The notes below the pieces were generated by a model. That model was given only the letters and a program-made list of their open reading frames with translations. It did not search any database and was not told the DNA's origin. Shown piece by piece: positions 26,261 through 44,006 of a DNA stretch of 64,000 bases. Numbering within the stretch: position 1 is the stretch's first letter; each line of letters starts with the position of its first letter. Source of the DNA: Bacteroidota bacterium (GTDB taxonomy: Bacteria; Bacteroidota; Bacteroidia; Bacteroidales; JACABE01). Made by a program: the position numbers and the translations under genes. The stretch lies in NCBI GenBank assembly GCA_013377005.1, contig JACABE010000002.1:7165-71164 (forward strand). The letters are read 5' to 3'.

Positions 26261-26296
26261 AAAAGAGGCCTCCTTCTGATAAGGAAATAGCCTCTT
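26261..26296 (-). terminator. Hairpin terminator after 26323-26847
   Basis: aagaggc...gcctctt outer stem with an inner tcctt/aagga pairing. An A-run on the plus strand gives a T-tail on the minus strand. Confidence 0.6.
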
Positions 26297-26322
26297 AATG
26301 CTATTATAGTTATTAAAAAAAA

Positions 26323-26847
26323 TTAGTTATAAGCTACAGTTACATTAAAAGTTCCTGCATAAACTGCTGCAACTTGAGCTGCAGTTACATTTAATGTTCC
26401 TCCGATGGTAAAACTATCAGTACCGGTAACACTTAATGTGCCGGTAAGTCCGTTTGCACCAGCAGAGGCTGTTCGTGCAAGTATATTATCAATAGTCATG
26501 TTATGAGCAGCACCATCGGTTACAGTTATTGTAGAAGGCAAGGTAATTGCATAAGTAGTGCTTATTGCACCACCTACATTATAAGCTGCATTTGCTGCAA
26601 TAGGTGTTTGTGCTGAAAGATTAACACCACCAGTAGCAGTGCGTACACCTTGAGTTGAAAGCACACATGTTCCTGCAGTTGATGCTAAAACAGCCATAGT
26701 ACCAAAATTCAAAGGAGAAGTTTCAGTGATAGAAATAGGAGCAACAATTTTAGCTCCTGCGGTTGTATTTTTAGTAGCCTGAGCCATAACGTTTGCAGAA
26801 AAACCTGCCATAATAATTGCAACGATAATAATGATTGTTTTTTTCAT
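26323..26847 (-). CDS. DUF4402-like major fimbrial subunit, tandem copy 3
   Basis: 174 aa. Same architecture, ending YAGTFNVTVAYN. Confidence 0.88.
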   Translation of the reverse strand: MKKTIIIIVAIIMAGFSANVMAQATKNTTAGAKIVAPISITETSPLNFGTMAVLASTAGTCVLSTQGVRTATGGVNLSAQTPIAANAAYNVGGAISTTYAITLPSTITVTDGAAHNMTIDNILARTASAGANGLTGTLSVTGTDSFTIGGTLNVTAAQVAAVYAGTFNVTVAYN

Positions 26848-26909
26848 TTTTGTAGTTCTTTGTTTTTATTGTTTTACTTTTTAGTATCAAATTTACAATT
26901 CCTTATCTA

Positions 26910-26925
26910 TCAATATACGTGCCGG
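26910..26925 (-). promoter_or_regulatory. Sigma-54-like promoter (CCGGCACGTATATTGA)
   Basis: GGCACG -24 element with correct spacing to a TTGA -12 element (GC changed to GA). It lies about 64 nt upstream of the ATG at 26847. Confidence 0.5.
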
Positions 26926-26999
26926 AATTCACAACAAATTGATTTATATACTTTTAATCATTTTAAAATAATAAAATTACATATAAAAATCTACAAAAA

Positions 27000-27009
27000 C
27001 GAATACATA
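27000..27009 (-). promoter_or_regulatory. Conserved upstream motif variant (cgaatacata)
   Basis: The GAATA core lies 78 nt upstream of the -24 GG of the copy-3 promoter. Confidence 0.3.
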
Positions 27010-27055
27010 ATCTTCATTCTATTATAATTCTGAAAATTTGAACCCAATTTGATAT

Positions 27056-28444: not shown

Positions 28445-28537
28445 TTTTTAAAGAGTATCTATTTATATATTTAAGAAATTATTAAATTATTAAATTTTAG
28501 TCTTTTATTTAAACCCTGAAACTTTTATTATAAAGTG

Positions 28538-28555
28538 CAAAGATATGCAAAGTTA
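28538..28555 (-). promoter_or_regulatory. Two adjacent candidate -7 boxes (TATCTTTG and TAACTTTG) upstream of 27056-28444
   Basis: Both match TAnnTTTG on the minus strand, 94-110 nt upstream of the ATG at 28444. Motif only. Confidence 0.3.
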
Positions 28556-28663
28556 ATTTATATGTAATCTCTTTTATAATAAAAAACCTTACTAATAATA
28601 TTTATCTTTTATTGTTTAGATTTATTAATACTTTAATTTAGTGAAATATATAAGAAAACCCGT

Positions 28664-28700
28664 TTAGTTATAACAATCAAACGGGTTTTCAATCAACAAA
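28664..28700 (-). terminator. Hairpin terminator after 28746-30134
   Basis: gaaaacccgttt / aaacgggttttc 12-bp stem, 46 nt after the stop. Confidence 0.65.
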
Positions 28701-28745
28701 CAATTAGTAATCAATATTTATCTTATATACCTATTATCTTTAGGT

Positions 28746-30134
28746 TTAAGAAAAATCAGGAGGTAAATCAATGCTATATTTCTGAACACGTCGGTAAAGT
28801 GCATTCCAATCCAGATTTAGCAATCTTGCTGCTTCTGCTTTATTAAAGTTCACTCTATGAAGTACGTTAAGAATAGTTTGTTTCTCTAATTCTTTCAGAT
28901 CATAGGGGTTAGTATCTGAGTATAAAGGTATTTTCATAATTTTTACAGAAGTAAAATGTGAAGGAGTTAACTCATTAGTCTGACAAATAATAACAGCTCT
29001 TTCTAATAAATTTTTCAGTTCTCTAATATTTCCAGGGAAAGGATAATTATTGAATAATTGAAAAACATCATCATTGATGGATTTAATCTTATTTTTACCC
29101 ATTTTTTTCGTCAAAATATTTAAAAAATAATTTGATAGTTCGGCAATATCACTTCTTCTTTCTCTTAAAGGAGGTAAATTAATAACAAAAGTTCCTAAAC
29201 GATGGAAAAGATCTAGGCGAAAAACTTTTCCTTCAGTTAATTCTTCGATAGATTTATTCGTAGCAGAAATTATACGAACATTAAAATCCTGTTCTCGTTG
29301 TGTACCAACTTTCGTAAATTTACGATCTTCCAGTACTCTTAATAATTTTATCTGTAAAGCAATTGGCATTTCTCCAATTTCATCCAAAAATAATGTACCA
29401 TTATTCGTTTCTTCAAACCAACCAGCTCTATCAACAATTGCACCAGTAAAACTTCCCTTTTTGTGTCCAAAAAATTCACTTTCAAATAAAGATTCGGGAA
29501 CAGCTGACATATTTACAGCTCCAAATAATTGACAATTTCGTTTACTAAGATTATGAATTCCACGAGCTACTAGCTCTTTCCCTGTACCACTTTCTCCAAT
29601 AATCAATACAGATGTATCAGGTGTTTCTGCAACCATTTCCATTTGTTGCTTAATATTGATAATATCTATTGACTTACCAATAATCATCTGCCCTAATTCA
29701 TTGCTTACTGTTTTTTTGAGTAAATTATTTTCCTTATTTACATGAGTAAGTTTTTCTTTTAAAGCTGAGAATTTTTGTGTGCGTTCAATTGAAAACCAAA
29801 TTTCAGGAGCTGTAAAAGGTTTTTTCAGAAAATCGACAGCACCTTTGCGTAAAGCACCAATTACAGTATCCATATCTCCCGAACCACTTATCATAATCAC
29901 CTCAGTACCGGGGTATTCACATCTAACTTTATCTATTACTTTTAACCCACTCATTTCGGGTAATTGAAAATCAGAAATAATAATATCTATGGATTGTTTA
30001 TTAAGAATATCAAAGCCTAGTGAAGGACTTTCTACAGCAATTACTTCAAATTTATCTTTTAAAACTGAACGTAAAAGGTTTCGATATATTGGATCATCAT
30101 CAATAACCAAAATATTTAATTTATCGTCTTTCAT
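28746..30134 (-). CDS. Sigma-54-dependent response regulator (REC - AAA+ - HTH), paralog 1
   Basis: 462 aa, collinear with 27056-28444 and carrying the same motifs: GESGTGKE, GSFTGA, LFLDEIGE, NKAEAARLLNLDWNALYRRVQK. Confidence 0.92.
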   Translation of the reverse strand: MKDDKLNILVIDDDPIYRNLLRSVLKDKFEVIAVESPSLGFDILNKQSIDIIISDFQLPEMSGLKVIDKVRCEYPGTEVIMISGSGDMDTVIGALRKGAVDFLKKPFTAPEIWFSIERTQKFSALKEKLTHVNKENNLLKKTVSNELGQMIIGKSIDIINIKQQMEMVAETPDTSVLIIGESGTGKELVARGIHNLSKRNCQLFGAVNMSAVPESLFESEFFGHKKGSFTGAIVDRAGWFEETNNGTLFLDEIGEMPIALQIKLLRVLEDRKFTKVGTQREQDFNVRIISATNKSIEELTEGKVFRLDLFHRLGTFVINLPPLRERRSDIAELSNYFLNILTKKMGKNKIKSINDDVFQLFNNYPFPGNIRELKNLLERAVIICQTNELTPSHFTSVKIMKIPLYSDTNPYDLKELEKQTILNVLHRVNFNKAEAARLLNLDWNALYRRVQKYSIDLPPDFS

Positions 30135-30226
30135 CTTTATTATTTACTAAATTATTAGCTACAATCTGTTTATTGGTCTATTTTTACAATTAAAGTAGAA
30201 TACTATTAAATTTACATTAAGGTTAG

Positions 30227-30745
30227 TTAGTTATATACAAAAATAATGGGATAAGTACATGCATAAGAACCAATAGGATTAACTTCAGTTGATCCAACAT
30301 GTAAGGTAGATCCAACACTCACAATTAATTCACTGTTTGACTTTGAACTTCCAGCTTTTGGCATATCAACAGTCCATGTATCTAAATACATATAATTTAC
30401 TCCGTTTTGATGATAAATATATACTGGACTACTAGGAAGAATTACTTGTACAGTATTATTTTGAGTGCCAAAAATCGAAAATATTCCTTGTTGAGCAACA
30501 CCTTCTGAAAGCATCACAGATCCATTAGATGTGCGCGTACCCTGAGGTGAAACAACAACATTGCCACCATTACCCATCGTAGAAAACTGCCCAAAACTCA
30601 AAGGTTTTATTTCAGTAGCAACTGTTGCAGGTACTATTTCTGCGAATACAGTGCCTGTACATGTAATTTGCCCGAAAGTATTATAATTTGTCATTATAAT
30701 AACTAAAACTATAATTATTTTTGAAAGAGTATTTAGTTTTTTCAT
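30227..30745 (-). CDS. DUF4402-like secreted subunit (minor-type paralog B)
   Basis: The start is taken at MKKLNTLSKIIIVLVIIMTNYNTFGQ (ATG at 30743-30745). LSFGQF, GSTLHVG...GSYACTYPIIFVYN. Confidence 0.8.
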   Translation of the reverse strand: MKKLNTLSKIIIVLVIIMTNYNTFGQITCTGTVFAEIVPATVATEIKPLSFGQFSTMGNGGNVVVSPQGTRTSNGSVMLSEGVAQQGIFSIFGTQNNTVQVILPSSPVYIYHQNGVNYMYLDTWTVDMPKAGSSKSNSELIVSVGSTLHVGSTEVNPIGSYACTYPIIFVYN

Positions 30746-31102
30746 GTGGACTAATTTTAAGTTTTTATATAAGAACTTATTTATCGTCTTATCACATGTA
30801 AAAGTACTCTCACAATAGGCAATTTCTTGTAAGATAAAGGCTAAATATTTGTAAGGAAAAAGCGATTTCATTTGTAGGGAAAATCTTACAAAGAAATACG
30901 CTTAGTGAATATAATATTAGCGTATTAATTTAGATAGGTAGCAAAAATGTTATTTTTGTTTCTAGATTGAGACCGTTGCAAACAAAATATTGAAAATAAG
31001 ACATAAATACATAGAATACAATTTTTTGTATTGATTTATTTTGCAACGGTTTCAATACTCTATTTCGTTTTTAAACTTCTTTTAAATCCAATGATTTTCG
31101 TA

Positions 31103-31185: not shown

Positions 31186-32277
31186 TTAATCACTACCCTT
31201 AGGAAGAAATACAATGAAATTTGTACCTAAACCTGGTTTACTTTCTACTATTATTTTCCCATTATTTTGATAAACAAAATCTTTTACCAAAAATAGCCCC
31301 AAACCGGTTCCCATCTCATTTTTAGTACCAAGAGAAGTGTAATGTGTATTCTGATTAAAAATTTTATTTATTATTTCTTCTGACATCCCAATTCCTGTAT
31401 CTTTGATGCTAATAGAAACAAAATCTCCTGAATCTTCAGTATCAATAGATATTGTACCATTATCTGGAGTAAATTTAATAGCATTTGAAATAATATTACG
31501 AAATGCCGTATGCATGGTTACCTCATCAAAAAATGCTATTGTACTTTCAGGAATATTTAAATTAATTATGATATTCTTGTTTTGAACATTGCCTTTTAAA
31601 AGATATAAGCATTCTGAAAGTATAATATGAATATTAGTTAATTTTGGAAAAAGAGAAATATTATCGCTATGAAGTTTTGTCCATTCGAGCAAATTATTAA
31701 GAAGAGTCGTTGTTTCTGTAGTTCTTTGTTTCAACAGATTGAAAATTTTCATAAAATCATCACTCCCCATCTCAAGAAATCCATTTGAAATAGCATCAAT
31801 CGTTTGAGTGATACCAGATAATGGAGAACGAATATCGTGAGCAATAATAGAATATAATTTATCACGGGTTCTGTTCATTTCTATTATTTTCTTTCGTGAA
31901 CCAGCCAGTTCAAGATGTGTTTTTACTCGCATCAGCAATTCATCCTTTTTAAAAGGTTTTGACATATAATCAACAGCTCCTGCTTTAAAGCCATCAACCA
32001 AATCATCTGTTTGATTTTTCGCAGTAATAAAAATCACAGGAATGTTTTTGGTTTTTGGATTTTCTTTTATTTTCTTTTGGACTTCAAAGCCATCCATGAT
32101 TGGCATCATGATATCTAACAAAATCAAGTCAATATCATTGTCTTCTAATATTTTCAATGCATTTTCGCCATTAAGGGCAAGTGCTATTTTGTAGCCTTCA
32201 TCTCTCAGTAAGCTGCTAAGAATTCTTAAATTTTCCTGGTTATCATCAACTGCGAGTATATATTTATCTTCGTTCAT
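31186..32277 (-). CDS. REC-HisKA-HATPase (receiver-controlled histidine kinase)
   Basis: REC: LAVDDNQENL...LILLDIMMPIMDG...SKPF. H-box SIIAHDIRSPLSG. N-box ISNAIKFTP. DTGIGM. GTGLGL. The ATG lies 4 nt after the upstream stop. Confidence 0.92.
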   Translation of the reverse strand: MNEDKYILAVDDNQENLRILSSLLRDEGYKIALALNGENALKILEDNDIDLILLDIMMPIMDGFEVQKKIKENPKTKNIPVIFITAKNQTDDLVDGFKAGAVDYMSKPFKKDELLMRVKTHLELAGSRKKIIEMNRTRDKLYSIIAHDIRSPLSGITQTIDAISNGFLEMGSDDFMKIFNLLKQRTTETTTLLNNLLEWTKLHSDNISLFPKLTNIHIILSECLYLLKGNVQNKNIIINLNIPESTIAFFDEVTMHTAFRNIISNAIKFTPDNGTISIDTEDSGDFVSISIKDTGIGMSEEIINKIFNQNTHYTSLGTKNEMGTGLGLFLVKDFVYQNNGKIIVESKPGLGTNFIVFLPKGSD

Positions 32278-32281
32278 ATTA

Positions 32282-35200
32282 TTAATTAATTAATTTAGTT
32301 ATTCTAGTAATTATTTGTGGAAAATTGTTAAGTGTTATTTTTAATGATTCAAAATCAACTGCATCAAGGTCATCTTTTATTTTATTAGCGTAATCAAGTA
32401 AAAACTGAAATTGATACTTTACTGCTAATTGTTGTAAACCATCAGCAAAAGTCTCTATTTTGTAGAGGAGAAGGTTGTCTTTAACATATTCCCAATCAGG
32501 TAAGTATTTTTGATTTATTACTTGTAGAATTTCAGGTATAGATTTCATGAGAGTCTCTGATAGGTTATCTAGATTTGACGTGTACAGTATTTTCTCATTT
32601 TCAGTTTTATTCTTAATTGTATATTTTAAAAATCTTGTAAGTTGACTATATATCTGTGCTCTACTTACAGGTTTTATAAGAAATCCATTAAAATAAACAG
32701 AATTCTCAATTTTTTGGGTGTCGAAAATAGAAGCAGTGAAAGCAACAATGGGTATATTATTTTTTTGCGGATTCTCTTTTATTCTTTTTGCTACTTCAAA
32801 CCCATCAATACCAGGCATACGAATATCAAGCAAGATTAAATCAGGAGAAATGTGTTCTAACTTTTCAAGAGCTGTTTCACCATCTTCAGCAGATAAAATT
32901 TTTAAACCAGATGTTATCAATAAACTTTCAATAGTTTCTATATTTGAAACAACATCATCTACTATTAAAATAGATGCTTCATTAAAAGTTATATTTTTAA
33001 TATTGTCCTCATTATCATTTTTTGGCAGTTTTTCTGTTTTTGTAATTTTTATATCTGGAATAATAATCTTAAACACAGATCCTTTCTCAATATTACTGGA
33101 AACAGAAATTTTTCCATTCATTTTTTCCACCAAACGTTTTGAAATAGCCAAACCTAAACCAACTCCACCATATTTTCGATTTGATTGACCGTGCTGTTGC
33201 CTAAAAGCTTCAAAAATTAAGTCTTGCTGAGATTCAGGAATTCCGATACCTGTATCTTCAACCTCTAACCGAAGCTCTCCTTCATTTTCATTGGTAATAG
33301 AGAAATAAGCAAAGATATTTACATGGCCTTGATTTGAAAATTTAATAGCATTTCCTACAAGGTTAAAAATTATTTGTTTGATTCTTATTTCATCAATTAT
33401 AAGTATCTCTGGAAAACCGGATTCAATGAAAATATTTAATTCCAGTCCTTTAGAAATAGCTTTATCTTTAAAAAGAACAATAATTTCATGCAATAAATTG
33501 CTTAAATTAATTGGTAAAGGTAAAATATCAAGTTTCCCTGCTTCAATTTTTGAAAGGTCGAGAATATCGTTAAGTAATGATAATAAAAGATTTCCACTAC
33601 TTAACACAGATTTTATCATTTCCTGATGTTGCCTTGATTCGAGTTTATGAAACAATGCCTCACTAAAACCAAGTATTGCATTCATTGGAGTACGAATTTC
33701 ATGACTCATATTGGCAATAAACTCAGATTTAGCAGTATTGGCTAGCTCTTCCTTTTTCTTTTCTTGGATTAAGCTATTTTCCAATTCAACTCTATTTTTA
33801 AAATTTACCAACATTTGAGAAAAAACAAATAAAAGTGTTTCTTCTTTTTCGGAATAAGTATGATGATGTTTAACTGAATCAAAACCAACAAAACCAATAC
33901 ACTGATTATCTTTCATCATAGGTATTGCTATCAAACTTTTTATTCCTTGATCCTTTATTATTGTTCTTACTCCATTTTCTTCAGGAAAAACTAATACATC
34001 AGGAATATTCAATGCGAGTCCTTTTTTGTGCGCTTCTACAAACTGAGGTATAACAGATAAAGGAACATTTTGTAATTCATCAAACTGGGAAGTTATTCCT
34101 TGAGCACACCATTCATAGGTATTGCTACAACTTTGATTTTCCCAATCGTATTCTAAAATATATGATCTGTCAGCATCCACAAAAAGACAAAGTTCTTCTA
34201 AAGATTTGTTTATTGTTGTATCAATTTCTGAAAGCGGAATATTAATATAAGTAGAAGAAATATTCATAAGAATTCTTTGCAACGATGCCTGATTAATAAG
34301 AGCAGCTTCAGTGTTTTTACGTTCAGTAATATCTGTTGCAACTCCAATTAGAGCAATTGGTTCATCTTTTTCGTTATAAATAATAGAAGAAGAAACATAA
34401 ACAGGAAATTCAGTACCATCTTTTTTAAGATTCAGTAATTCTCCATTCCAACCACCTTTAAGTGTTGATGAAAGAATACTTTTAATATCACCAACCAGAT
34501 TATTAGGAGAACGAATAATGCTTATTGAACTTCCTATTAAATCATGTTCTTCGTATTTATATGTTTTTAAAAATGCATTGTTAACAAAAAGTATATTATC
34601 ATTCATATCAGTAATGCTGACACATTCACCGATACTTCGTATTGCATGTGCAAGCATCAGCACGGTTTCCTCTGTCCGCTTTCGATTGGTAATATCTTCT
34701 CCAGAACTTAGCATACCTTGTATTTTACCATTATTGTCGGTAATTAAAGTATTGTGCCATGCAATTAAAAGTTTTTTACCAGTTTTAGTAATAATGCTAT
34801 TTTCGTAATAATCAGAAGGTAAAGATTTTCCGGTTATTATTCTTTGATAGTCATAAAAAACTCTGTCATATTCTTCCTTAGGAACACAGGTTTTAAACCA
34901 GTCTTTACCTTCTAAATCATCCAATGTATATTCAAGAACTTGACATGCTTTTTGATTGAGCATCGTAATTCTGGCATTATTATCATAAGCTACTAGCATT
35001 ACCTGAGCTACATTTAAATAAGTTTCTGCTTTTTGTTTTTCTTTAAGAGACGCTAATTCAGCCAATTTTCGATCCGTTACATTTCTAACAATAGCCAAAA
35101 CTTTATCATAATGTGTAGGTACTATACGTGATTCAAAAAATTCATTGACACCATTGATATTGAGTTCATAAGAAAATTGGACTAATTCTTTGTTTAACAA

Positions 35201-36358
35201 TGACATTTTAAATGCATTCTTTGCTTCTTCAGCTATATTAGATGGAAATAATTTAGTAATATTTAATCCTATAAGTTGTTCTTTTGGCACAAAGAGTTTT
35301 GAATTATCTTCAGTAAAAACATCTAAATAATCGCCATCTTTATTAAAGATAAACAATAAATCAGGAATTGCTTTTAAAATAGCAGCTTTTTGATTTTCAC
35401 TTTCTATTAAATCTTCTTCTATTTTTTTTCTTTTGCTAATATCACGAGTTACACCAAGAAAATATTTGAATTGGTGTTCATCATCATAAATTGCACTTAT
35501 TACAATCTCAGTCCATACTGTAGATCCATCTTTGCATGTTTGCTCTAAGATAAGTGGAACCGGTTCGAGTTTTTCTCCTGCTATAATTCTTGGAGTATAT
35601 TCAGCGAGTATATTATGTGCAATTTGAGCAGAATCAGGCGTTAATGTTTCATCAAAGGTTTGCTTAATACCTTCTTCCGCAGTAAAACCCCTTAGAATGA
35701 TTATAGACTGACTTATGTAGTGGTATTTACCAAATAAATCCATTGTCCATATTACATCGGTGGAATTTTCAGCCAGAAGTCTATATTTTTCTTCGCTTTC
35801 ACGAAGTGCTTCTTCCATTTTTCTCCTTATTTCATTCTCCTTTCCCAAATCTTCCAGTAAATTCAAGGTCGCTTTTTGAGTTAATATCAACTCATTGGTA
35901 CGTTCTTCAACTAAAGTACTTAACCGTTTTTCTTCGTTGCGTTTTTCTGTATTGGCTTTTTTAATTTTTACCATTGCACGAATTTGAGCAGTAAGTTCGC
36001 TTTCGTCAATAGGCTTAGCAAGAAAAGCTTCACCGCCAACTTCTAATGCCCTAATACGACTGTCTTTATCGCCTTTTAATGCAGTTACAAAAACTACCGG
36101 TATATCGCATAGCAATTCGTTGGATTTTAGTTTTCCACATACTTCAAACCCATCCATGCCTGGCATTACAACATCGAGCAAAATAACATCAGGATTTTCA
36201 TTAACAGCTAGCTCAATTCCATTTTCTCCGTTTAAAGCAGTAAAGATTTTAGCTTCAGGAAAAGCGTCATATACCATTGCTTTAATGGTGATTAGATTGT
36301 CTTCATTATCATCAATAGCTAGAATTTTTAACTTTTTATTTTCCATATAAGACCTCAT
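32282..36358 (-). CDS. Hybrid sensor kinase: REC - about 4-5 PAS - GAF - HisKA - HATPase - REC - helical tail
   Basis: 1358 aa. N-terminal REC (ILAIDDNEDN...VILLDVVMPGMDG). PAC boundaries RDISKRK, RNVTDRK, EDITNRK and TDITERK. H-box MSHEIRTPMNA. GVGLGL. C-terminal REC LILLDIRMPGIDG. An alternative ATG exists at 36346. The gene overlaps the upstream gene's stop. Confidence 0.92.
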   Translation of the reverse strand: MRSYMENKKLKILAIDDNEDNLITIKAMVYDAFPEAKIFTALNGENGIELAVNENPDVILLDVVMPGMDGFEVCGKLKSNELLCDIPVVFVTALKGDKDSRIRALEVGGEAFLAKPIDESELTAQIRAMVKIKKANTEKRNEEKRLSTLVEERTNELILTQKATLNLLEDLGKENEIRRKMEEALRESEEKYRLLAENSTDVIWTMDLFGKYHYISQSIIILRGFTAEEGIKQTFDETLTPDSAQIAHNILAEYTPRIIAGEKLEPVPLILEQTCKDGSTVWTEIVISAIYDDEHQFKYFLGVTRDISKRKKIEEDLIESENQKAAILKAIPDLLFIFNKDGDYLDVFTEDNSKLFVPKEQLIGLNITKLFPSNIAEEAKNAFKMSLLNKELVQFSYELNINGVNEFFESRIVPTHYDKVLAIVRNVTDRKLAELASLKEKQKAETYLNVAQVMLVAYDNNARITMLNQKACQVLEYTLDDLEGKDWFKTCVPKEEYDRVFYDYQRIITGKSLPSDYYENSIITKTGKKLLIAWHNTLITDNNGKIQGMLSSGEDITNRKRTEETVLMLAHAIRSIGECVSITDMNDNILFVNNAFLKTYKYEEHDLIGSSISIIRSPNNLVGDIKSILSSTLKGGWNGELLNLKKDGTEFPVYVSSSIIYNEKDEPIALIGVATDITERKNTEAALINQASLQRILMNISSTYINIPLSEIDTTINKSLEELCLFVDADRSYILEYDWENQSCSNTYEWCAQGITSQFDELQNVPLSVIPQFVEAHKKGLALNIPDVLVFPEENGVRTIIKDQGIKSLIAIPMMKDNQCIGFVGFDSVKHHHTYSEKEETLLFVFSQMLVNFKNRVELENSLIQEKKKEELANTAKSEFIANMSHEIRTPMNAILGFSEALFHKLESRQHQEMIKSVLSSGNLLLSLLNDILDLSKIEAGKLDILPLPINLSNLLHEIIVLFKDKAISKGLELNIFIESGFPEILIIDEIRIKQIIFNLVGNAIKFSNQGHVNIFAYFSITNENEGELRLEVEDTGIGIPESQQDLIFEAFRQQHGQSNRKYGGVGLGLAISKRLVEKMNGKISVSSNIEKGSVFKIIIPDIKITKTEKLPKNDNEDNIKNITFNEASILIVDDVVSNIETIESLLITSGLKILSAEDGETALEKLEHISPDLILLDIRMPGIDGFEVAKRIKENPQKNNIPIVAFTASIFDTQKIENSVYFNGFLIKPVSRAQIYSQLTRFLKYTIKNKTENEKILYTSNLDNLSETLMKSIPEILQVINQKYLPDWEYVKDNLLLYKIETFADGLQQLAVKYQFQFLLDYANKIKDDLDAVDFESLKITLNNFPQIITRITKLIN

Positions 36359-39308
36359 TTATTGTTTCGAAAAATATTTTTTCGTCAATAGGTTTTGCGA
36401 TATAAGCATTAAAGCCATGGGCAAGAATGGTTTCTCTATCAGAAGTCATAGCGCTGGCAGTAAGAGCTATAATAGGAATGTTTTGCAATCGAATGTCATT
36501 TCTTATAGCTTTAAATGCTTCTATTCCGTCTTTTTCAGGCAAAGCAATATCCATTAAAATCAGATGAGGATTATGATCCTTGGCCATCAATATCCCTTCA
36601 TTTCCATTTACAGCTTCTACAACATGATACTTATCGTTAAGAAGTGCTTTAACAGTTATCATATTATCAGGATTATCTTCAACTACTAATACCAATGGCT
36701 TTCCTTCAATACTTTGTAATTTTCGTTTAGGTTTTTCAATTTCAATTATTTCTGGTGATACCATTGTCGTTATAGCGTTCAATAACTCATTTCGATTTAC
36801 ATCACCTTTTTGAATAAGTTGATGAACATTATTTTGTTTTAAGAATTTAAGATCTTCTTTGGTAATATGTTTTGCTGTTAGAATTAAAACTGGGATAAGA
36901 GCTGTAGGTTCATTTTCTCTCAATACTCTTAATACTTCAAAACCATCAATATCTGGCATCATTAAATCCAAAATTATAGCATCAGGAATGTTTTGAGTTA
37001 CAATTTGAAGTGCTTCATTACCATTGCGAGCAAGTAAGATCTGATAACCATTTTCTTCAATAAAATCTTTTATCTGGATAATTGCAGGTTCACTGTCTTC
37101 CACCAACAAAATAGTTTTAAAAGATGAAATGGGTTTTGGATTTTGTAAAGTTGGTTTTATTGCATAATTAAAAGTTGTTGCAGCCTCTACATCATAAATT
37201 CTGTTTTCAGGTGCATATTGCAAAGGCAAAACAAGTGTAAATTCAGAACCTTGTCCAAGTATGCTTTTAACAGAAACTATTCCGCCAAGTAAGTTTGCAT
37301 ATTTCTTTGCAATAGCTAAGCCTAAACCAGTACCTCCAAATTTCCGAGAAGTACTACCATCTGCTTGCCGGAATTCATCAAAAATATGATGTATATGATT
37401 TTCATCAATTCCAATACCTGTATCACTTATTTTTATAATAAGCTTATTATCATTTTGTTTTGCAAATATTTCAACTTTCCCTTTTTCAGTAAATTTAACT
37501 GCATTACTTATAATATTTTGTAAAATATGACGGCATTTTCTATCATCACTGGTAAAAAACAATTCGGAATCAGCATCTGTATGAAGCAAATCAATATTTT
37601 TCTGTTGTGCTTGCTGTTTTATCATAGTTACAATTTCAGCAATCAGTGTATTGATATTAAATTTGTTTATTTCTATTTCTTCACGTCCGGCTTCAATGCG
37701 AGAAATATCAAGAATATCATTAATAAGATCCAATAGATGTTTACCATTACGTTCTATTACTTCAATATAACTATATTCTTCTTCGGGAATTAGTTTGGCA
37801 AGTCGGCGATTTAGCACTCCTGAAAGTGCAATTACAGAATTTAATGGTGTACGCAATTCATGACTCATATTAGAAAGGAAATTGGTTTTCAGACGATTTG
37901 CTTCGTTCAATTGCTTTTTCTGCATTTCTAACTCAGTATTTTGCTCGATTAATTCAGCAGATTGAGTAGATAATTCCGTTCTTTGAGTCTCTAATTCAAC
38001 GTTTTGTTGTTTTAGTCGTTCAGAAAATTCTTTCATTTTACGATATGCTAAAATACCCTCTATACGAGCATTTAAGGTATCTTTCATTTCATCTATCAAC
38101 TGTAATGTTTGTTTTGTAAAAGAGCTAATACTAGCCAACGAAATAATTGCAATAACTTTGTTACCAGCCAGTATGGGGAGCGTAATAATTTCGCGAGGAA
38201 TATATTTTCCACTAACAGTATGAAAAACAAATCGTGTTTCTTGAGGAATATTTTTAATATGTTGGATTTCACGTGTAGAAATAGCAGCACCAAATTCTCC
38301 CTCGTAGTTAGTAGCTGTAAACGATTGTCTGGCGTTATCATCAATTCCCAGTGATTCATAATGATCAAAAGTCTTTCTATCATTGCTCAACAAATAAACT
38401 GCTGCCATTTGTGCTTCGGTAAGCATAGTTAATGAATTGAGTGTAAGCTGAAAAAATCTTCTTGATTCATATTCATTCAGCATAACACTTGCAAGATTTC
38501 TAACTTTGTTAGCAATATCAGTATTCATCTGAATATACTCTATCATGGCATTGAATGAATTTGACAAGACACCGAATTCATTGTTTGACACATAAGAAGA
38601 ACGGGCATTCATATCTCCATTATGGTATTTATTTGTTGCATTCGTGAGTTCAACTATCGGTTTTTTAAAACTTTTTAATAAGTAAATATATATAATAATA
38701 GTAAGTACTAAAATAATTACTATTATTATTATTAATTGATTATTTAATGTATTTTGTAATTCTACTGAAGCTTTATACAACTCATCTCCTTTTGATTTAG
38801 CAAAAAAATCAATTTTATTTAATTTGGAAAGCAAAATATTAGTATTTTGCCCAACAATACCAGCATTTTTTGTACGATCTTTAGCTTCTGTTATTTTACC
38901 ATTGCGAAAAAGACGAATAGTTTCTTCGCATTTTGAATTCCAGATAATAAATGTTTCTTTAAGATAATCAATTTCAATTTTTTGACCCAAATATCGGCTA
39001 TATAAAATATCAATTTGCTCAAAAGCATTTGCCTTAGAAATCTCAATTTGGTTGAAATCATAAGCATTTTCTTTCTCATCGACTGTAAGAAACAAGTCGT
39101 TCATATCACGTTGAATAGTAAAAATATCTGAACGAAACGCATCAATTGCTCGCCTTACTTGAAGAGGATGATTATACAAGGTTTCCGTTTGTTCTTGAAT
39201 TTTATCTGTTTGCAAAAAGGAAATAATCCCCAATACAATTACAAAAAATATCATGATAGTGAACCCTATCTTAAGTTGCGTTCCAATTTTAAAGTTTTTG
39301 ATTTTCAT
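36336..39308 (-). CDS. Membrane hybrid kinase: MCP-like helical sensor between two TM segments - HAMP - GAF - Q/E-rich coiled coil - HisKA - HATPase - REC - REC
   Basis: 990 aa. TM1 IGFTIMIFFVIVLGIISF. TM2 LIIIIVIILVLTIIIYIYLL, followed by a HAMP-like segment. H-box MSHELRTPLNS. GTGLGL. Two receivers (IILDLMMPDIDG and ILMDIALPEKDG). Confidence 0.9.
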   Translation of the reverse strand: MKIKNFKIGTQLKIGFTIMIFFVIVLGIISFLQTDKIQEQTETLYNHPLQVRRAIDAFRSDIFTIQRDMNDLFLTVDEKENAYDFNQIEISKANAFEQIDILYSRYLGQKIEIDYLKETFIIWNSKCEETIRLFRNGKITEAKDRTKNAGIVGQNTNILLSKLNKIDFFAKSKGDELYKASVELQNTLNNQLIIIIVIILVLTIIIYIYLLKSFKKPIVELTNATNKYHNGDMNARSSYVSNNEFGVLSNSFNAMIEYIQMNTDIANKVRNLASVMLNEYESRRFFQLTLNSLTMLTEAQMAAVYLLSNDRKTFDHYESLGIDDNARQSFTATNYEGEFGAAISTREIQHIKNIPQETRFVFHTVSGKYIPREIITLPILAGNKVIAIISLASISSFTKQTLQLIDEMKDTLNARIEGILAYRKMKEFSERLKQQNVELETQRTELSTQSAELIEQNTELEMQKKQLNEANRLKTNFLSNMSHELRTPLNSVIALSGVLNRRLAKLIPEEEYSYIEVIERNGKHLLDLINDILDISRIEAGREEIEINKFNINTLIAEIVTMIKQQAQQKNIDLLHTDADSELFFTSDDRKCRHILQNIISNAVKFTEKGKVEIFAKQNDNKLIIKISDTGIGIDENHIHHIFDEFRQADGSTSRKFGGTGLGLAIAKKYANLLGGIVSVKSILGQGSEFTLVLPLQYAPENRIYDVEAATTFNYAIKPTLQNPKPISSFKTILLVEDSEPAIIQIKDFIEENGYQILLARNGNEALQIVTQNIPDAIILDLMMPDIDGFEVLRVLRENEPTALIPVLILTAKHITKEDLKFLKQNNVHQLIQKGDVNRNELLNAITTMVSPEIIEIEKPKRKLQSIEGKPLVLVVEDNPDNMITVKALLNDKYHVVEAVNGNEGILMAKDHNPHLILMDIALPEKDGIEAFKAIRNDIRLQNIPIIALTASAMTSDRETILAHGFNAYIAKPIDEKIFFETINEVLYGK

Positions 39309-39363
39309 TATGTTATATTTATAAAATCCCTTAAAAAAAGTTGGGTTAAATTAAGCTAATATT

Positions 39364-40182
39364 TTATTTACTAATCTGAAATATAGCCGATTGTGGATAC
39401 ACTTCATTGAATTTATTATTTATAAAAATATCTCTTTCTGCTTCACCAGTGACCAAGAAACTTTTATCCGTTAAACTATTGGATATCTTTTGTATAATAA
39501 CTTTACGATGTTCTGGTTTATAATAGAAAAGCAAATTTGCACAAAATATCATATCAAAACCACCAAATATGCTTACAGGAGGGCTACTTAAGTGTTCATT
39601 AAACAAATCAAAAACAGAAAAATCAATATTTTCTTTCAGTTCTGAATTTACTGTATATATTTTCCCTTCTTTCGTAAACCATCGTTTAAGACGTTTAAGA
39701 TTTATATTATTCATTAAATTGGCAGTATATTCGCCTTTATATGCCTTATTAACCTGCTCTTCTGACTGATCAGTAGCAAATATACGATAACAGAATTTTT
39801 CATTATCAGTACCTTTTATCTCCTCTAAAAGCATTGCTATACTATAAGCTTCCTGACCAATAGCACATGCGGCAGACCAAATTCTAATTTCTTTTCTTTT
39901 ATTATTTTCTTTTCTATGTATAATAGAAGGAAGAATAATCTTTTCTAACACAGAAAAAGTAAGTGGATTTCGAAAAAACTCACTATAACTTATATGCAAA
40001 GAATCTATAAACTGACTTCCTTCTTTAGTGTTTTTTTCAAGAATACTATAATACTCTTCTGTAGAATAACAGTTAATTTCTGCAATCCTTTTTTGAAGTG
40101 ATTTGTACAAGAATGATTCATCAAATTTTGAAACATCAACACCATGCTGTGCGTTTATAAAATCAATAATTTCTGTTTTCAT
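39364..40182 (-). CDS. cheR: CheR-type protein-glutamate O-methyltransferase (orphan)
   Basis: 272 aa. FFRNP motif, SAM-binding IRIWSAACAIGQEAYSIAMLL, and FCANLLFYY. Its ATG overlaps the stop of the upstream gene (ATGA at 40179-40182). Confidence 0.85.
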   Translation of the reverse strand: MKTEIIDFINAQHGVDVSKFDESFLYKSLQKRIAEINCYSTEEYYSILEKNTKEGSQFIDSLHISYSEFFRNPLTFSVLEKIILPSIIHRKENNKRKEIRIWSAACAIGQEAYSIAMLLEEIKGTDNEKFCYRIFATDQSEEQVNKAYKGEYTANLMNNINLKRLKRWFTKEGKIYTVNSELKENIDFSVFDLFNEHLSSPPVSIFGGFDMIFCANLLFYYKPEHRKVIIQKISNSLTDKSFLVTGEAERDIFINNKFNEVYPQSAIFQISK

Positions 40183-43100
40183 TCCACTATTTTATATTTT
40201 TCTTGTATACCTAATTGTTTATGTAAAACGTTTATTTCATTTTTTAATTCAATCATCTTTAATTCACGTCCGACAGAAATATTATGAAACCGTTGCAAAT
40301 CTTCCATTTTTTCTTTTAATGCTTCCTCGTCTTGTTTGCGTTCGGAAATATCACGGAAGTTTATCACTATTGATTCAACACTTGGATCGGCAAGTAAATT
40401 GGTAAATGTGCTTTCAATCCATTTCCAATTTCCATTTTTATCACGAAAACGATATTGCAAGGTTGGAGTATAAGATGGATCTTCAAAAAGTTTAGCCAAA
40501 TCCAATAAAACAAGATGTAAATCATCCGGATGTGTATGTTCTGCAGGATTTCCAGTTAGATCCTCAGATTCGCTATATCCAAACATTCTTTTTGCAGAAG
40601 GGCTCGCAAATTTAAAATTTCCTTCTGCATTTATAAGTACAATTCCATCGGGTGCTTTTTCGATTAAAGCTTGATAATGCTTCCCGATTTTCTTTATTGT
40701 TTCTTCTGTATGTTTTCGTTGAGTAATATCTTGTCCAAAACTTACAATACCTTGAATTTTTTCGGCAATATAAATAGGCGAGGTATTTACTGATATGGTT
40801 ATTATGCTATTATCTTCTTTTTTAAAACGCAATTCGTAATTACAGCTTTCTCCATTTATTGTTCGCTGAAAAACATCCATAATCATAGGGAGATCTTCTT
40901 GCAAGATGAGTGGTATAAAAGACTTTCCTTTCCATTCATTTAAGGTAAGTCCTGTAGTTTTTGTTGCTATTTCGTTAAGAAAAGTAAAGTTGCCACTGTT
41001 GTCTAATATCCAGATTAAGTCGTTTGAATATTCTATCATGGTCCGATATTTATCTTCGCTCTCTTTTAATGCCTGTTGTATCTGCATGTGCTCAGTAATA
41101 TCCATCATACTTATTACCAAATTCAATCTACCATTACTATCTTTATAATGGGTCATGTATTTTTCGCAAAGTCTTATTTCTCCATCAGAACGAATAAAAT
41201 TGAATTCATAATGGTGTTTGTATTTTTCACCTTTTGTAAATTTTATAAAATTAGCAACTACAAATTCTTTGGATTCAGTTGTAAGAAATACAGCAAAAGA
41301 ATCTGCTGCATAAATTTCTTTTCTGGAATACCCTCCCATTTTTATCATTGCATCATTTGCCCAAACAATTTTTCCAGCTTCATTAATAATGCATATAGAA
41401 CTAAAAGAATATTCAGACACTGCACGAAAACGCTCTTCATTTTCTTTCAATGATTTTTCGGCTTGCTTACGATCGGTAATGTTATTATGCTGTATAATAA
41501 CGTTACTTATTTTTCCATTTTTGTCGAATATAGGATAAGCCCAATTAGAATACCATACTTTCTTTTTTTCTTTTACGTCTATATTTTGCGAATCAGCAGC
41601 TATTCCTATATCAAAGAATACTTCCCACTCAACAGCTTTTCCTTCTTTAAAAACTTTTTCTAAATATGGAATAATTCCGTTCTGCTTTATTGCTTCATCA
41701 TGGAAAATATTATAAACCCTACCCTCAATATTCTGTGCTTCTACACCAAAGATTTCACTTAATTTCGAATTTATTCTTTCGCACCAACCTTCACAATCCA
41801 ATATTTGAGTACTTACAGATGATTGCATGAACATTTGTTCAAAGAAATACTTTTGCTTGATTAATTCATCATTATTTCTTTTGCTTTCGGTAATATCAAT
41901 TACATGAGTAATAAAATACATAGGCTCTCCATTCGTATTTCGCACCAAAGAAAAAGCCACATGCCCTAAAACGACATTACCTTGCTTATGAATATATACT
42001 TTTTCAAATTCAGCATGGTCAATTTCTCCATCTAAAGATCGTTTAATATATTCAAAGCTAGTATCATGGTAATCAGAATGAGTAATATCATTAATATTCA
42101 TACTTTCCATCTTTTTTGTACTATATCCAAACATATTACAAAAACATTGATTTACTTTTAAGAATCTTCCTTTAATATCAATAAGACACATCCCAACATT
42201 TGCATTATCAAAACTCAGGCGAAAGCGTTCTTCGCTTTCTTTTAATAAATCATTGGCTTGCCTGCTAAGTGTAATATCTCTTAGGCTCTCAATTGCACCT
42301 ACTACGTTTCCATACTCATCATGCAAAGGCGAAACTTTTGCAAAAATCCATGCTCCTTTATTACTATATAAAGCATTACAGAAAAATTCAGCAGTTAGAG
42401 TATCACCTTCTCTTTTAATATGCGGGTATTTGGAAATCACTTCGGTATTATTTTCGAAGACTAAATCCATCAACTGTGGTCTAGCTTCACCATAAAATGG
42501 AATCGTATAAGCATAATTACCTTTCCCTATCATTTCAGAGGCTTGAATTCCTGTCATTTCTACAATAGCCTTATTCCAGATAATAATACGTTTTTCTTTA
42601 TCAATACCAAGCGTAGCATCAGGTAAAAATTCAACAATATCTGCTAGTTGTCTCTGTTTATCTCTTAGTAAATTTTCAGATTTCTTACGATTTGTAATAT
42701 CTCTAATTGTCAGTAATACAGCTACTTTTTCAGCAAGCTTAATTGACATTGCTTTTACTTCTACATCAATTTCTGACCCATCGAGGCATATAAATTTTTC
42801 TTCATAAAGCGGTAATACAATTCCTTCATTCTCTAATTTTTTCATTCTCTCAATCACAAATGGTCGATAATCAGGATGAACAGATTGTATTACAGGCTTT
42901 CCTATTAATTCTTCTTCGCAGGAGGCTTTAATTAATTTAAGACTTTCATTATTTGCATAGATAACTTTTCCTTTCTCATAAATCACTATTGCATCAGGAG
43001 AGTTCTCAACCAGACTACGGTATTTATTTTCACTTTCTTTTAAAGCGTCTTCTATACGTTTACGCTCATTTATATTTCTAAAAAAAGACTGATAGTTTCC

Positions 43101-44006
43101 TTCTGGCATCCTTTTAGAACTCATTTCCACAAAAACAGAGCTACCATCTTTCCGAATCACTTCTCTTTCAACACATATAGTTTCACCTTTTTCAAGTAAA
43201 TCATACCTTAACGGTTTTTTATCATTTATTTCTGTCGAAAATAAATCCCTAATATTCATATTAAGAAGTTCTTCCTTACTATATCCAGTAAGTTCTGAAG
43301 CAGCTTTATTGGAATCAATAAGATTTCCAACTGCATCCCCCTGAAAAAAAGCATCTACCGCCAAATCAATAAGCAATCGGTATTTTTCTTCATTACCAAT
43401 TAGCAATTCTTGTATCTGTTTTTTTTCGGAAATATACTTTTTAAGTTGTAAATTATTGTATGCTTTTTCGGAAAGTTCGTTAGCAAATGCAAATAGCATT
43501 TTTGCTATTTTATTAAACCTGTCAAGAGACATTTCAGGCACTTCATTAAAAGCCTCTAAAAAATCATTTCGGTTTGCTCCAATTTCATCAGCATAACTTA
43601 ACATGCGTTGATTATCAATTTCACTATTACGAACCTGACCTATTAACCAATTTGCAATATGTCTTCCGGCAACAGTAATGCTTGCACCTGCATCCCATAA
43701 GCCGCCACTCAAACATGGTTGAATAATAGCTCCTGAAACATTATGGCAACCAAGAGTAGCATCTGATTTATAACAATTTGCTAGTCCTTTCTCTGTTTTA
43801 CGGATGATATCATTACATAATCTGCAAAAATTGCTGGGTCTGGTGATGGGTGTACCATCTGGATGTGTAATGAGAGAAGCCACTCCATTAGCATCGGAAA
43901 ACAAATCCTGTAATTGCTGAATATCTTCAATGTTGAATATATCAGCAAACTGAATTTCAATAAAGTTTTGATCAGCTAATTCTATTTGCTTTGTTTTGGT
44001 TTTCAT
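40179..44006 (-). CDS. PocR sensory domain plus eight PAS/PAC units, with no recognisable output domain
   Basis: 1275 aa. N-terminal PocR-like Cys pattern NFCRLCN...GLANCYKSD...QPCLSGGLWDAGASI...GQV. Eight PAC ends (NINERK, RDITNRK, RDITLSR, IDITESK, NNITDRK, MDITEHM, QDITQRK, RDISERK). The C-terminus is a short coiled coil with no H-box and no ATPase motifs. Confidence 0.88.
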   Translation of the reverse strand: MKTKTKQIELADQNFIEIQFADIFNIEDIQQLQDLFSDANGVASLITHPDGTPITRPSNFCRLCNDIIRKTEKGLANCYKSDATLGCHNVSGAIIQPCLSGGLWDAGASITVAGRHIANWLIGQVRNSEIDNQRMLSYADEIGANRNDFLEAFNEVPEMSLDRFNKIAKMLFAFANELSEKAYNNLQLKKYISEKKQIQELLIGNEEKYRLLIDLAVDAFFQGDAVGNLIDSNKAASELTGYSKEELLNMNIRDLFSTEINDKKPLRYDLLEKGETICVEREVIRKDGSSVFVEMSSKRMPEGNYQSFFRNINERKRIEDALKESENKYRSLVENSPDAIVIYEKGKVIYANNESLKLIKASCEEELIGKPVIQSVHPDYRPFVIERMKKLENEGIVLPLYEEKFICLDGSEIDVEVKAMSIKLAEKVAVLLTIRDITNRKKSENLLRDKQRQLADIVEFLPDATLGIDKEKRIIIWNKAIVEMTGIQASEMIGKGNYAYTIPFYGEARPQLMDLVFENNTEVISKYPHIKREGDTLTAEFFCNALYSNKGAWIFAKVSPLHDEYGNVVGAIESLRDITLSRQANDLLKESEERFRLSFDNANVGMCLIDIKGRFLKVNQCFCNMFGYSTKKMESMNINDITHSDYHDTSFEYIKRSLDGEIDHAEFEKVYIHKQGNVVLGHVAFSLVRNTNGEPMYFITHVIDITESKRNNDELIKQKYFFEQMFMQSSVSTQILDCEGWCERINSKLSEIFGVEAQNIEGRVYNIFHDEAIKQNGIIPYLEKVFKEGKAVEWEVFFDIGIAADSQNIDVKEKKKVWYSNWAYPIFDKNGKISNVIIQHNNITDRKQAEKSLKENEERFRAVSEYSFSSICIINEAGKIVWANDAMIKMGGYSRKEIYAADSFAVFLTTESKEFVVANFIKFTKGEKYKHHYEFNFIRSDGEIRLCEKYMTHYKDSNGRLNLVISMMDITEHMQIQQALKESEDKYRTMIEYSNDLIWILDNSGNFTFLNEIATKTTGLTLNEWKGKSFIPLILQEDLPMIMDVFQRTINGESCNYELRFKKEDNSIITISVNTSPIYIAEKIQGIVSFGQDITQRKHTEETIKKIGKHYQALIEKAPDGIVLINAEGNFKFASPSAKRMFGYSESEDLTGNPAEHTHPDDLHLVLLDLAKLFEDPSYTPTLQYRFRDKNGNWKWIESTFTNLLADPSVESIVINFRDISERKQDEEALKEKMEDLQRFHNISVGRELKMIELKNEINVLHKQLGIQEKYKIVE

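Follow-up and report, generated by a model that had tools for sequence, protein, structure and literature searches.

Background

Glutamate methylation is textbook knowledge for chemoreceptors, whereas histidine-kinase glutamate methylation rests, to our knowledge, on essentially one studied case, the RsbK/RsbM pair of Bacillus cereus. RsbK is a hybrid kinase with the layout CHASE3, HAMP, GAF, S-helix, HK, CA and REC, and RsbM, a CheR-type methyltransferase encoded in the same operon, methylates its signalling helix, a modification that is required to hold the kinase output off (PMC4574943). As an orphan methyltransferase, RsbM exerts constitutive negative control: it has no cognate esterase, deletion of the chemotaxis CheB is without effect, and this kinase-dedicated enzyme coexists with a separate chemotaxis system in the same organism (PMC4574943). 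The same study reports "127 RsbK-like sensor kinases in 10 bacterial phyla" (PMC4574943), and a further paper cites de Been 2011 for the genomic association between RsbK and CheR (PMC12848376). Here we describe a related arrangement in 64,000 nucleotides (nt) of DNA from a Bacteroidota bacterium of freshwater metagenome origin (assembly GCA_013377005.1, contig JACABE010000002.1, positions 7,165 to 71,164; G+C ~30%), referred to throughout as the window. In this window, a gene for a CheR-family protein directly precedes the gene for a hybrid membrane histidine kinase, which we call HK1, and a candidate methyl-accepting helix lies immediately before the catalytic core of that kinase.

A CheR-family gene and a kinase gene travel together across phyla

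The two genes are part of an apparent minus-strand operon of at least five genes, in the order PocR-PAS-Ctail, CheR, HK1, HK2 and HK3. An earlier model-made reading, based on the letters of the DNA and their translations (the sequence-only reading), had recognised the first three of these, and both their order and their open reading frames (ORFs) at 40179-44006, 39364-40182 and 36336-39308 were borne out by ORF and Pfam annotation, but the operon continues beyond them with HK2 and HK3. The PocR-PAS-Ctail gene (40179..44006) encodes a soluble protein of 1275 amino acids (aa) with a PocR domain, ~8 PAS units and a conserved C-terminal module that we call Ctail, cheR (39364..40182) encodes a 272-aa protein matching Pfam CheR with an E-value of 1e-43, and HK1 (36336..39308) is a hybrid membrane histidine kinase of 990 aa. 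The stop codon of the PocR-PAS gene and the start codon of cheR overlap as ATGA (40179..40182, minus strand, reading ...GGAATGAAAAC), as had been noted before, and since the two codons overlap, the junction indicates translational coupling. The gap between cheR and HK1, on the same strand, is 55 nt. The sequence is identical, without indels, in two independent freshwater metagenome assemblies.

We assembled 80 genome loci around members of the same CheR clade, using domain probes derived from the proteins of the window to annotate the ORFs. Of these loci, 77 extend downstream of CheR, and in 75 of the 77 (97%) the next gene on the same strand encodes an HK1-type kinase. The partner kinase has the layout 4HB-HAMP-GAF-coiled coil-HisKA-HATPase-REC(-REC) and is orthologous to HK1; it usually precedes an overlapping REC-PAS-kinase-REC gene of the HK2 type, and an HK3-type gene comes after HK2 in several related loci. 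The loci originate from Bacteroidales, Ignavibacteriales, Nitrospirae, Desulfobacula, Geobacteraceae, Lentisphaerota, Spirochaetales and candidate phyla, and the direct neighbours of CheR across the 80 loci are kinases. Neither of the two exceptional loci, which have no HK1-type kinase downstream, places CheR in a che cluster: in one it is found among housekeeping genes, and in the other it is followed by an inserted nuclease gene and then the end of the contig. CheR and HK1-type kinase genes travel together across phyla, in an arrangement that is far beyond chance, and this conserved synteny links the function of CheR to its neighbouring kinase rather than to a chemotaxis operon. A plasmid collection contained no member of the window CheR clade, the best match being 32% identical.

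The CheR-family protein belongs to a distinct clade

More than 2000 homologues of the window CheR were detected. The best 120 of these are stand-alone proteins, mostly of ~275 aa and 52-65% identical to it, and the few that are named derive mostly from metagenome-assembled genomes of Bacteroidales/Bacteroidia. The protein aligns over nearly its full length with the CheR structures 5FTW (B. subtilis), 5XLY (P. aeruginosa) and 1BC5 (Salmonella), the hidden Markov model (HMM) alignment spanning residues 13-250 of 1BC5 and 9-238 of 5FTW, and it has the two parts of the CheR fold, a helical N-terminal domain and an S-adenosylmethionine (SAM)-dependent methyltransferase domain with a beta-subdomain and conserved motifs. 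These motifs, which are invariant in the clade, comprise FFR (the equivalent of Arg98), WSAAC-GQE-YS together with ATD (SAM-binding) and the equivalent of Tyr235; in addition, the window protein carries a clade-specific PPxSIFG insertion. It lacks the four-residue beta-subdomain insertion of the Salmonella enzyme, a feature that goes with pentapeptide binding in Salmonella CheR, and resembles the B. subtilis CheR in this respect. Pfam reported no CheR_N in the window protein, though this domain is annotated in many clade members, and the protein does not pass the NCBIfam CheR equivalog, scoring 103.8 bits against a cut-off of 435. Judged by its alignment and motifs, the window CheR is a predicted SAM-dependent protein-glutamate methyltransferase of a distinct clade. 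Literature searches on CheR with PocR and on orphan CheR in Bacteroidetes gave nothing relevant.

A Gln/Glu heptad helix marks the CheR-adjacent kinases

HK1 consists, in order, of a first transmembrane segment, 4HB_MCP_1, a second transmembrane segment, HAMP, GAF, a signalling helix, HisKA, HATPase and two REC domains, all coordinates below being on the minus strand. The extracytoplasmic four-helix-bundle sensor (aa 5-181, 38766..39296; Pfam 4HB_MCP_1, 1.3e-14) is flanked by hydrophobic windows at ~aa 8-33 and 190-215, the Pfam-assigned HAMP (aa 211-260) and GAF (aa 285-408) domains occupy 38085..38678, and the kinase core and receivers are found at 36366..37889 (HisKA aa 474-541, HATPase_c aa 588-697, REC1 ~aa 738-860, REC2 aa 873-981). 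The sequence-only reading had described the membrane kinase with its sensor resembling that of a methyl-accepting chemotaxis protein (MCP), its HAMP and its GAF correctly, but had missed the two C-terminal receiver domains. It had also pointed out a heptad-repeat segment just before the H-box, and such a segment is indeed present at aa 432-472 (37893..38015): a signalling helix, or coiled coil, of five heptads with Leu at position a, Gln at d, Asn/Lys/Ser at e and Glu at g. The helix ends 11 residues ahead of His483 (codon 37860..37862), the predicted phospho-acceptor as judged from the H-box motif SHELRTPL.

Among 59 full-length orthologues, the consensus of the helix is LExQNxELEAQKTELxSQSAELxEQNTELEMQKKQLxEA. 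The Gln residues at position d (435, 442, 449, 456, 463) are 97-100% conserved, the Glu residues at position g (438, 445, 452, 459) 93-98%, and the fifth rung of the latter ladder, Gln466, 97%. Two natural deletions in the helix each remove exactly 7 aa, that is, one heptad. The surface positions e and g are as conserved as the core positions, which argues for partner recognition rather than mere coiled-coil packing.

The motif is closely confined to the kinases that accompany CheR. At least four Q..EL heptads precede the H-box in 92 of 95 CheR-adjacent kinases, while among the other kinases in the same loci (n=107), 96 have no such heptad, 10 have one and a single protein has three, this outlier being a truncated member of the HK1 family. 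A filter-free phmmer search with the 51-residue helix against 1.84 billion (1.84e9) representative proteins returned 76 matches, nearly all with the same architecture and the helix at ~aa 424-474, the remainder being generic repetitive coiled coils. A helix profile search of a word-indexed protein database gave 2 matches only, too few to be informative, and the helix has no Pfam match. Because it is the signature of exactly those kinases that have a CheR partner, we consider the HK1 helix the best candidate for the methyl acceptor, with E438, E445, E452, E459 and Q466 as the candidate ladder. The methylation consensus of MCPs, [ASTG][ASTG]xx[EQ][EQ]xx[ASTG][ASTG], was also tried as an acceptor site in the operon proteins and was rejected, since no match to it is conserved, including among the 59 HK1 orthologues.

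The kinase module shares its architecture and helix register with RsbK-type kinases

RsbK-type loci for comparison came from a tblastn search in which the HAMP-to-HisKA part of HK1 was run against the plasmid collection. One of these, on a Niallia taxi megaplasmid, encodes a 920-aa 4HB_MCP_1-HAMP-GAF-HisKA-HATPase-REC kinase, a 273-aa CheR_N+CheR protein and a REC-SpoIIE (PP2C) regulator, which by domain content is an RsbK-RsbM-RsbY arrangement, and HK1 is collinear with its RsbK-like kinase (29% identity over 767 aa, E 4e-89). A second copy of the sigB cluster is found on the Bacillus thuringiensis YBT-1518 plasmid pBMB0231 (L166, 4539-10164), where a CHASE3-type RsbK paralogue is accompanied by genes for an RsbY-like REC-phosphatase, a STAS protein, RsbW and SigB, with general stress protein genes flanking; no adjacent RsbM-like gene is listed in this cluster.

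When anchored on the phospho-accepting His, the helices of the window family, Niallia and B. thuringiensis fall into one ungapped heptad register. Leu occupies position a from -51 to -16 in the window family, from -72 to -16 in Niallia and from -65 to -16 in B. thuringiensis, the latter two with Ala at -37. The g ladder reads E-45, E-38, E-31, E-24, Q-17 in the window family, E-80, E-73, E-66, E-59, E-52, Q-45, D-38, E-31, E-24, Q-17 in Niallia, and E-66, E-59, E-52, Q-45, E-38, D-31, E-24, Q-17 in B. thuringiensis; E-24 and Q-17 are thus identical in all three helices, and Gln is present at d in the repeat region of each. In B. cereus RsbK, where the phospho-accepting His is H505, Glu439 is reported to be the preferred methylation site and Glu446 a minor one (Chen et al. 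2012), and these residues would fall on the g ladder, as the second Glu of the SEELQxQ repeats.

On the sequence evidence, common descent of the kinase module in HK1 and the RsbK-like proteins is well supported. The likeness comprises the kinase layout itself (four-helix-bundle sensor, HAMP, GAF, S-helix, HisKA, HATPase, REC), a CheR-type gene in the kinase operon with no cognate esterase, none being encoded within the 64 kb of the window, and a heptad helix with Leu at a, Gln at d and Glu at g in the same register from the His. The two systems differ, however, in that the methyltransferase gene precedes the kinase gene in the window, whereas the order in rsbK-rsbM is the reverse, and in that HK1 has two receiver domains. 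Furthermore, the Glu ladder of the window family is of the E-L and not the E-E-L type and lies three heptads nearer to the His, the methyltransferase comes from another CheR lineage with a Ctail sensor gene upstream, and instead of an RsbY-type PP2C regulator or an RsbV/RsbW/sigma-B switch, two more hybrid kinases follow; scanning of the window ORFs for SpoIIE/PP2C, STAS, RsbW and SigB found none.

The PocR-PAS protein ends in a conserved module

The PocR sensory domain of the protein encoded upstream of CheR (aa 22-183, 43458..43943, minus strand) matches Pfam PF10114 over the full profile (positions 1-162 of 162; 169.9 bits, E 4.8e-50). In the PAS region, Pfam families match up to 7 stretches, and eight PAS-sized segments can be distinguished, split by S-box linkers. 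Pfam found no kinase, cyclase or DNA-binding domain in the protein, and it has no transmembrane segment; the AraC-type DNA-binding output of the PocR regulator has no counterpart here. The sequence-only reading was right about these missing domains, but its description of the protein as "output-less" and ending in a short coiled coil was wrong, as a conserved C-terminal module, Ctail, is found in that place.

Ctail consists of a 44-residue helix (aa 1221-1264, 40215..40346, minus strand; ...ELQRFhxLTVGRELxMIELKKE(I/V)NxLL...) and a non-helical terminal peptide (aa 1265-1275, LGIQEKYKIVE, 40182..40214, minus strand) with an invariant Tyr and a KYxIV motif. This shape is the one predicted by AlphaFold2, which gives a single 44-residue helix, with a block-mean predicted local distance difference test (pLDDT) score of 95-97 over most of its length, and an 11-residue non-helical tail. 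The last ~55 residues are conserved as ...AEEALxEKMxELQRFHxLTVGRELxMIELKKE(I/V)NELLxxxGxEEKYxIVE-stop, with R, E, M, K, E, N and Y invariant over 81 sequences, and a Ctail profile matched 563 proteins. Ctail has no Pfam match, and a profile search of the PDB gave no match. The possibility that it mimics an H-box or DHp domain, or is a relative of the kinase helix, was rejected on the basis of hhalign comparisons with S-helix and DHp profiles (<1% probability). The idea that its peptide serves as an NWETF-like CheR tether was weakened by the lack of the Salmonella-type beta-subdomain insertion in CheR and by the retention of the peptide where no CheR gene is adjacent.

The gene directly upstream of CheR encodes a Ctail protein in 44 of 79 genome loci (~55%). 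The sensory parts of these proteins vary (1-10 PAS units, REC, REC-PAS, PocR-PAS), and the Ctail gene overlaps cheR in 17 of the 44 loci, by ATGA in 11. In a metagenome sample of Ctail genes, CheR came next in 37 of the 71 cases with a downstream gene, with an ATGA overlap in many of the 37 pairs, and Ctail was nearly always 0-5 residues from the stop codon. Where CheR is not next, the following gene often encodes a membrane sensor (dCache-HAMP...), a periplasmic binding protein preceding one, or something unrelated. Two associations can accordingly be distinguished: a broad one between Ctail sensors and membrane kinases of RsbK-like layout, and a specific, near-obligate one between CheR and Glu-ladder kinases.

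An example from outside the bacteria is provided by an ANME-2 archaeon (GCA_013572355.1, L083:2-340 and 345-3833), in which 4 nt separate a PAS-Ctail gene from the dCache-HAMP-GAF-kinase-REC-REC gene that follows it. This locus contains no CheR, and its kinase has no Gln/Glu ladder. Since the PAS-Ctail gene occurs here without CheR, the module crosses the boundary between bacteria and archaea and does not depend on CheR. Elsewhere, a REC-Ctail gene and a PAS-kinase gene overlap by 4 nt (L123:1668-3511), and the same pair is found fused into a single 597-aa protein in L148:2042-3835, with a linker in place of the Ctail terminal peptide. Many short PAS, kinase and Ctail ORFs follow one another in L082 (contig_9609, 408 kb; ~4917-10891), a row that resembles one large gene for a multi-PAS kinase, interrupted by frameshifts or by faults in the assembly, and many of the "stand-alone" Ctail proteins of 40-100 aa in the databases may be fragments of this kind.

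Relation to other methylation systems and signalling helices

With the classical system of MCP, CheR and CheB the locus shares the enzyme family, a 4HB_MCP-type sensor domain on the receptor, and candidate Glu/Gln acceptors spaced 7 apart on a coiled coil beside a HAMP-containing transmembrane receptor. It differs in having no MCP signalling domain, CheA, CheW, CheB, CheD or canonical methylation consensus in the window, and in that the HK1 helix is a histidine kinase connector and not an antiparallel four-helix adaptation bundle. The absence of CheA, CheW, CheB and the MCP signalling domain, already stated by the sequence-only reading, holds, as does that of CheD, for the scanned window ORFs of at least 120 aa, a few short ORFs inside and opposite larger genes being left out.

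A link also exists to the CheB-CheR fusion proteins. In 11 of the 80 loci, a fusion with the layout CheB_methylest-CheR_N-CheR-coiled coil-PAS_10-PAS is encoded no more than 10 kb away from the CheR-kinase pair, usually just upstream of the Ctail gene, and its coiled coil, right after the CheR domain, contains many (S/T)NEELQ(S/T) repeats of the same E-L-Q heptad type as the RsbK-like helices. These findings are in keeping with the suggestion of the sequence-only reading that the fused and split systems are related. Two such fusions (L129:3-3266 and L134:1-2088) end in Ctail as their sole C-terminal module after the PAS domains. In the window, by contrast, CheR is a separate small protein of another lineage without an esterase domain, and the heptad helix resides in the kinase. 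It is possible that CheB-CheR fusions offer an esterase in some genomes; the literature searched contained no study on the function of these proteins.

FrzF of M. xanthus is described as a CheR with a TPR domain, an extra module that controls where and how much the receptor is methylated (PMC2535941). Ctail sensor proteins could play a similar controlling role in trans, although in FrzF the regulatory domain and the enzyme form one protein, which methylates an MCP (FrzCD). Finally, the HK1 helix resembles the S-helix in that it lies between GAF and DHp, spans ~40 residues and has heptad periodicity, but its core is a Gln/Leu zipper accompanied by a Glu ladder. The S-helix signature of the literature probably differs from that of the HK1 helix.

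Genomic surroundings of the operon

Downstream of HK1, the operon continues on the minus strand with HK2 (32282..36358; 1358 aa; REC, PAS, GAF, HisKA, HATPase, REC), which shares 23 nt with the HK1 gene, and with HK3 (31186..32277; 363 aa; REC, HisKA, HATPase), which starts 4 nt past HK2 and is the final gene of the apparent operon. A terminator scan found none between the operon genes. Matches resembling sigma-70 promoters were fewer than in shuffled sequence; for a Bacteroidota genome, neither scan is informative. One metatranscriptome from a sample carrying the window sequence gave no contig matches.

The operon sits within a run of about ten sensor-kinase genes. More broadly, the minus strand carries an unbroken run of about a dozen signalling genes at 31186-63574, with overlaps of 1-4 nt at several junctions: a 5TM-LYT-PAS kinase-REC, a FIST protein, a 4xPAS kinase-REC, a REC-kinase, a CHASE-PAS kinase-REC, a multi-PAS-GAF kinase-REC (1611 aa) and a REC-HATPase-REC, followed by the PocR-PAS/CheR/HK1/HK2/HK3 operon. 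Directly downstream of the latter (17413-30871, minus strand) are seven DUF4402 paralogues and two tandem 462-aa sigma-54 activators (REC-AAA-HTH_8), together with an unassigned 294-aa ORF and a 1147-aa OmpA/SPOR protein. This cluster is possibly a sigma-54-controlled surface-structure output; as a conserved output of the CheR-kinase module it was rejected, since among the related loci DUF4402 is confined to L006 and L073, the two closest. The remainder of the window includes a PKD/CHU_C cargo protein of type IX secretion (1785-4475, plus strand), whose CHU_C domain identifies the host as a member of Bacteroidota, a deoxyhypusine-synthase-like gene beside a gene for a pyridoxal phosphate-dependent decarboxylase (4830-7299, minus strand), which may belong to a polyamine pathway, and two tandem Xaa-Pro aminopeptidase paralogues (11103-13810, plus strand).

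Discussion

We put the probability at roughly 55% that the locus represents a Bacteroidota-centred variant of the RsbK/RsbM type, in which a CheR-family methyltransferase is dedicated to the hybrid kinase HK1. CheR would move methyl groups from SAM onto at least one Glu of the ladder (E438, E445, E452, E459), and with these charges neutralised beside the polar Gln core, the dimeric helix would change in stability or rotate. Since this helix drives DHp, the dimerisation and His-phosphotransfer domain of the kinase, methylation would set the activity of the kinase, of phosphotransfer or of REC inhibition, much as methylation of the RsbK S-helix does in B. cereus. We infer the methyl transfer, its sites and its effect from sequence features and from this analogy. 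As no esterase is encoded nearby, methylation would most likely serve to set a level or act as an input, and fast feedback adaptation would be unlikely. The methylation-based adaptation proposed by the sequence-only reading finds no support, as no CheB is present: the window contains neither CheB nor CheD, and RsbM, for its part, acts as a constitutive negative regulator. The other element of that proposal, that CheR acts on the DHp-proximal helix, has gained plausibility from the synteny, the specificity of the motif and the shared register with RsbK, but the idea of a methylation-tuned kinase is not new, being the RsbK/RsbM principle, which has already been reported as widespread. More tentatively, the Ctail helix and KYxIV peptide of the PocR-PAS protein might bind CheR and/or HK1, in which case cytoplasmic signals sensed by PocR/PAS would modulate methylation or kinase output.

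Several observations weigh against this interpretation. The census of MCP, CheB and CheD covers the 64-kb window only. The CheR clade has CAN where canonical CheRs have CRN, which corresponds to a replacement of Arg230 by Ala, and neither the PocR-PAS protein, HK1, HK2 and HK3 nor the upstream kinases contain a strict match to the canonical MCP consensus. The RsbK sites E439 and E446, which we take to be at -66 and -59 from H505, would presumably lie three heptads beyond the ladder of the window family. The window CheR is 25% identical (81 bits) to the sole RsbM-like sequence compared, that of Niallia, whereas its identity is 32% with B. subtilis CheR and 27-29% with the CheR domains in CheB-CheR fusions, and a small neighbour-joining tree with one RsbM-like sequence, in which the sequences of solved CheR structures were taken from printed HMM alignments, does not join the window CheR to RsbM; CheR and RsbM may have been recruited to kinases independently. 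Lastly, Ctail proteins also occur without CheR, beside other membrane kinases, and for this reason Ctail is not a CheR-specific element.

It could be argued that the target of CheR, or the factor controlling it, is the Ctail sensor protein rather than the kinase helix, the PocR-PAS protein being either the methyl acceptor, through the invariant Glu of Ctail, or part of a stoichiometric complex with CheR, and the kinase merely a downstream partner. Such a role would fit the ATGA overlap seen here and in many loci, the invariant Glu in the Ctail helix, the resemblance of the C-terminal peptide to the CheR-tethering pentapeptide of MCPs, and the Ctail at the end of some CheB-CheR fusions. We nevertheless regard it as unlikely: an adjacent Ctail gene is present in ~55% of the CheR loci compared with a kinase in 97%, Ctail with the same terminal peptide stands beside kinases without CheR, as in the ANME-2 archaeon, and the beta-subdomain insertion found in the Salmonella enzyme, which binds the pentapeptide, is missing from CheR. 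Since CheR is associated near-obligately with Glu-ladder kinases, and Ctail sensors broadly with membrane kinases, the kinase helix is favoured over the PAS protein as the target of CheR. Alternatively, the helix might be purely structural or mechanical, with CheR modifying a receiver of HK1 or HK2 or a response regulator, or acting as a non-catalytic adaptor. Salmonella CheR is reported to methylate the response regulator PhoP (PMC8546571), the BvgS papers present polar-core helices between sensor and DHp as common regulators in their own right, and the exchange of Arg230 for Ala in the clade could point in the same direction. However, the SAM-binding positions and those of the catalytic Arg and Tyr are invariant in the CheR clade, which argues for catalysis, the helix motif is found only in kinases that have a CheR partner, and in the RsbK system it is the homologous helix that has been demonstrated to be methylated (PMC4574943), all of which makes this explanation unlikely.

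A further alternative is an ordinary chemotaxis role, in which CheR would serve MCPs from other parts of the genome, its kinase neighbours being incidental. The protein is a bona fide member of the CheR family, only 64 kb of the genome are in view, and chemoreceptors have been reported in some Bacteroidetes (PMC7390727). Against this, the same kinase follows the CheR clade in 75 of 77 loci across phyla, no che gene is present in the window or in the two exceptional loci, the score of 104 bits is far from the NCBIfam equivalog cut-off of 435, and the B. cereus precedent demonstrates that a kinase-dedicated RsbM can exist next to a separate chemotaxis system (PMC4574943). We therefore consider a role in ordinary chemotaxis very improbable.

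The dedicated methyltransferase-kinase pair that we favour would constitute a new variant of RsbK/RsbM, because it has Ctail sensors, a methyltransferase of a separate CheR lineage and no sigma-B output. It amounts to a large, tightly conserved CheR-kinase family centred on Bacteroidota, a phylum not usually tied to chemotaxis, and since the signature of Leu at a, Gln at d and Glu at g predicts the acceptor residues, the mechanism becomes directly testable outside Bacillus. Two additions are not reported for RsbK/RsbM in the literature searched, namely sensor proteins with Ctail that are translationally coupled to the methyltransferase, and nearby CheB-CheR fusions with the same type of helix. 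If methylation proves to be signal-controlled, it would add a second covalent input layer to two-component signalling. While the role of Ctail is speculative, one could tentatively propose, as a doubtful but conceivable reading, that it is a widespread, previously undescribed output module that docks PAS, REC, PocR and CheB-CheR sensors onto a CheR-type methyltransferase and/or a membrane kinase, and that would make Glu methylation of the helix a signal-dependent input and not a form of feedback adaptation. If this were true, then, together with the E-L-Q helices in RsbK-type kinases and CheB-CheR fusions, it would point to a chemotaxis-independent methyl-accepting signalling helix across many phyla.

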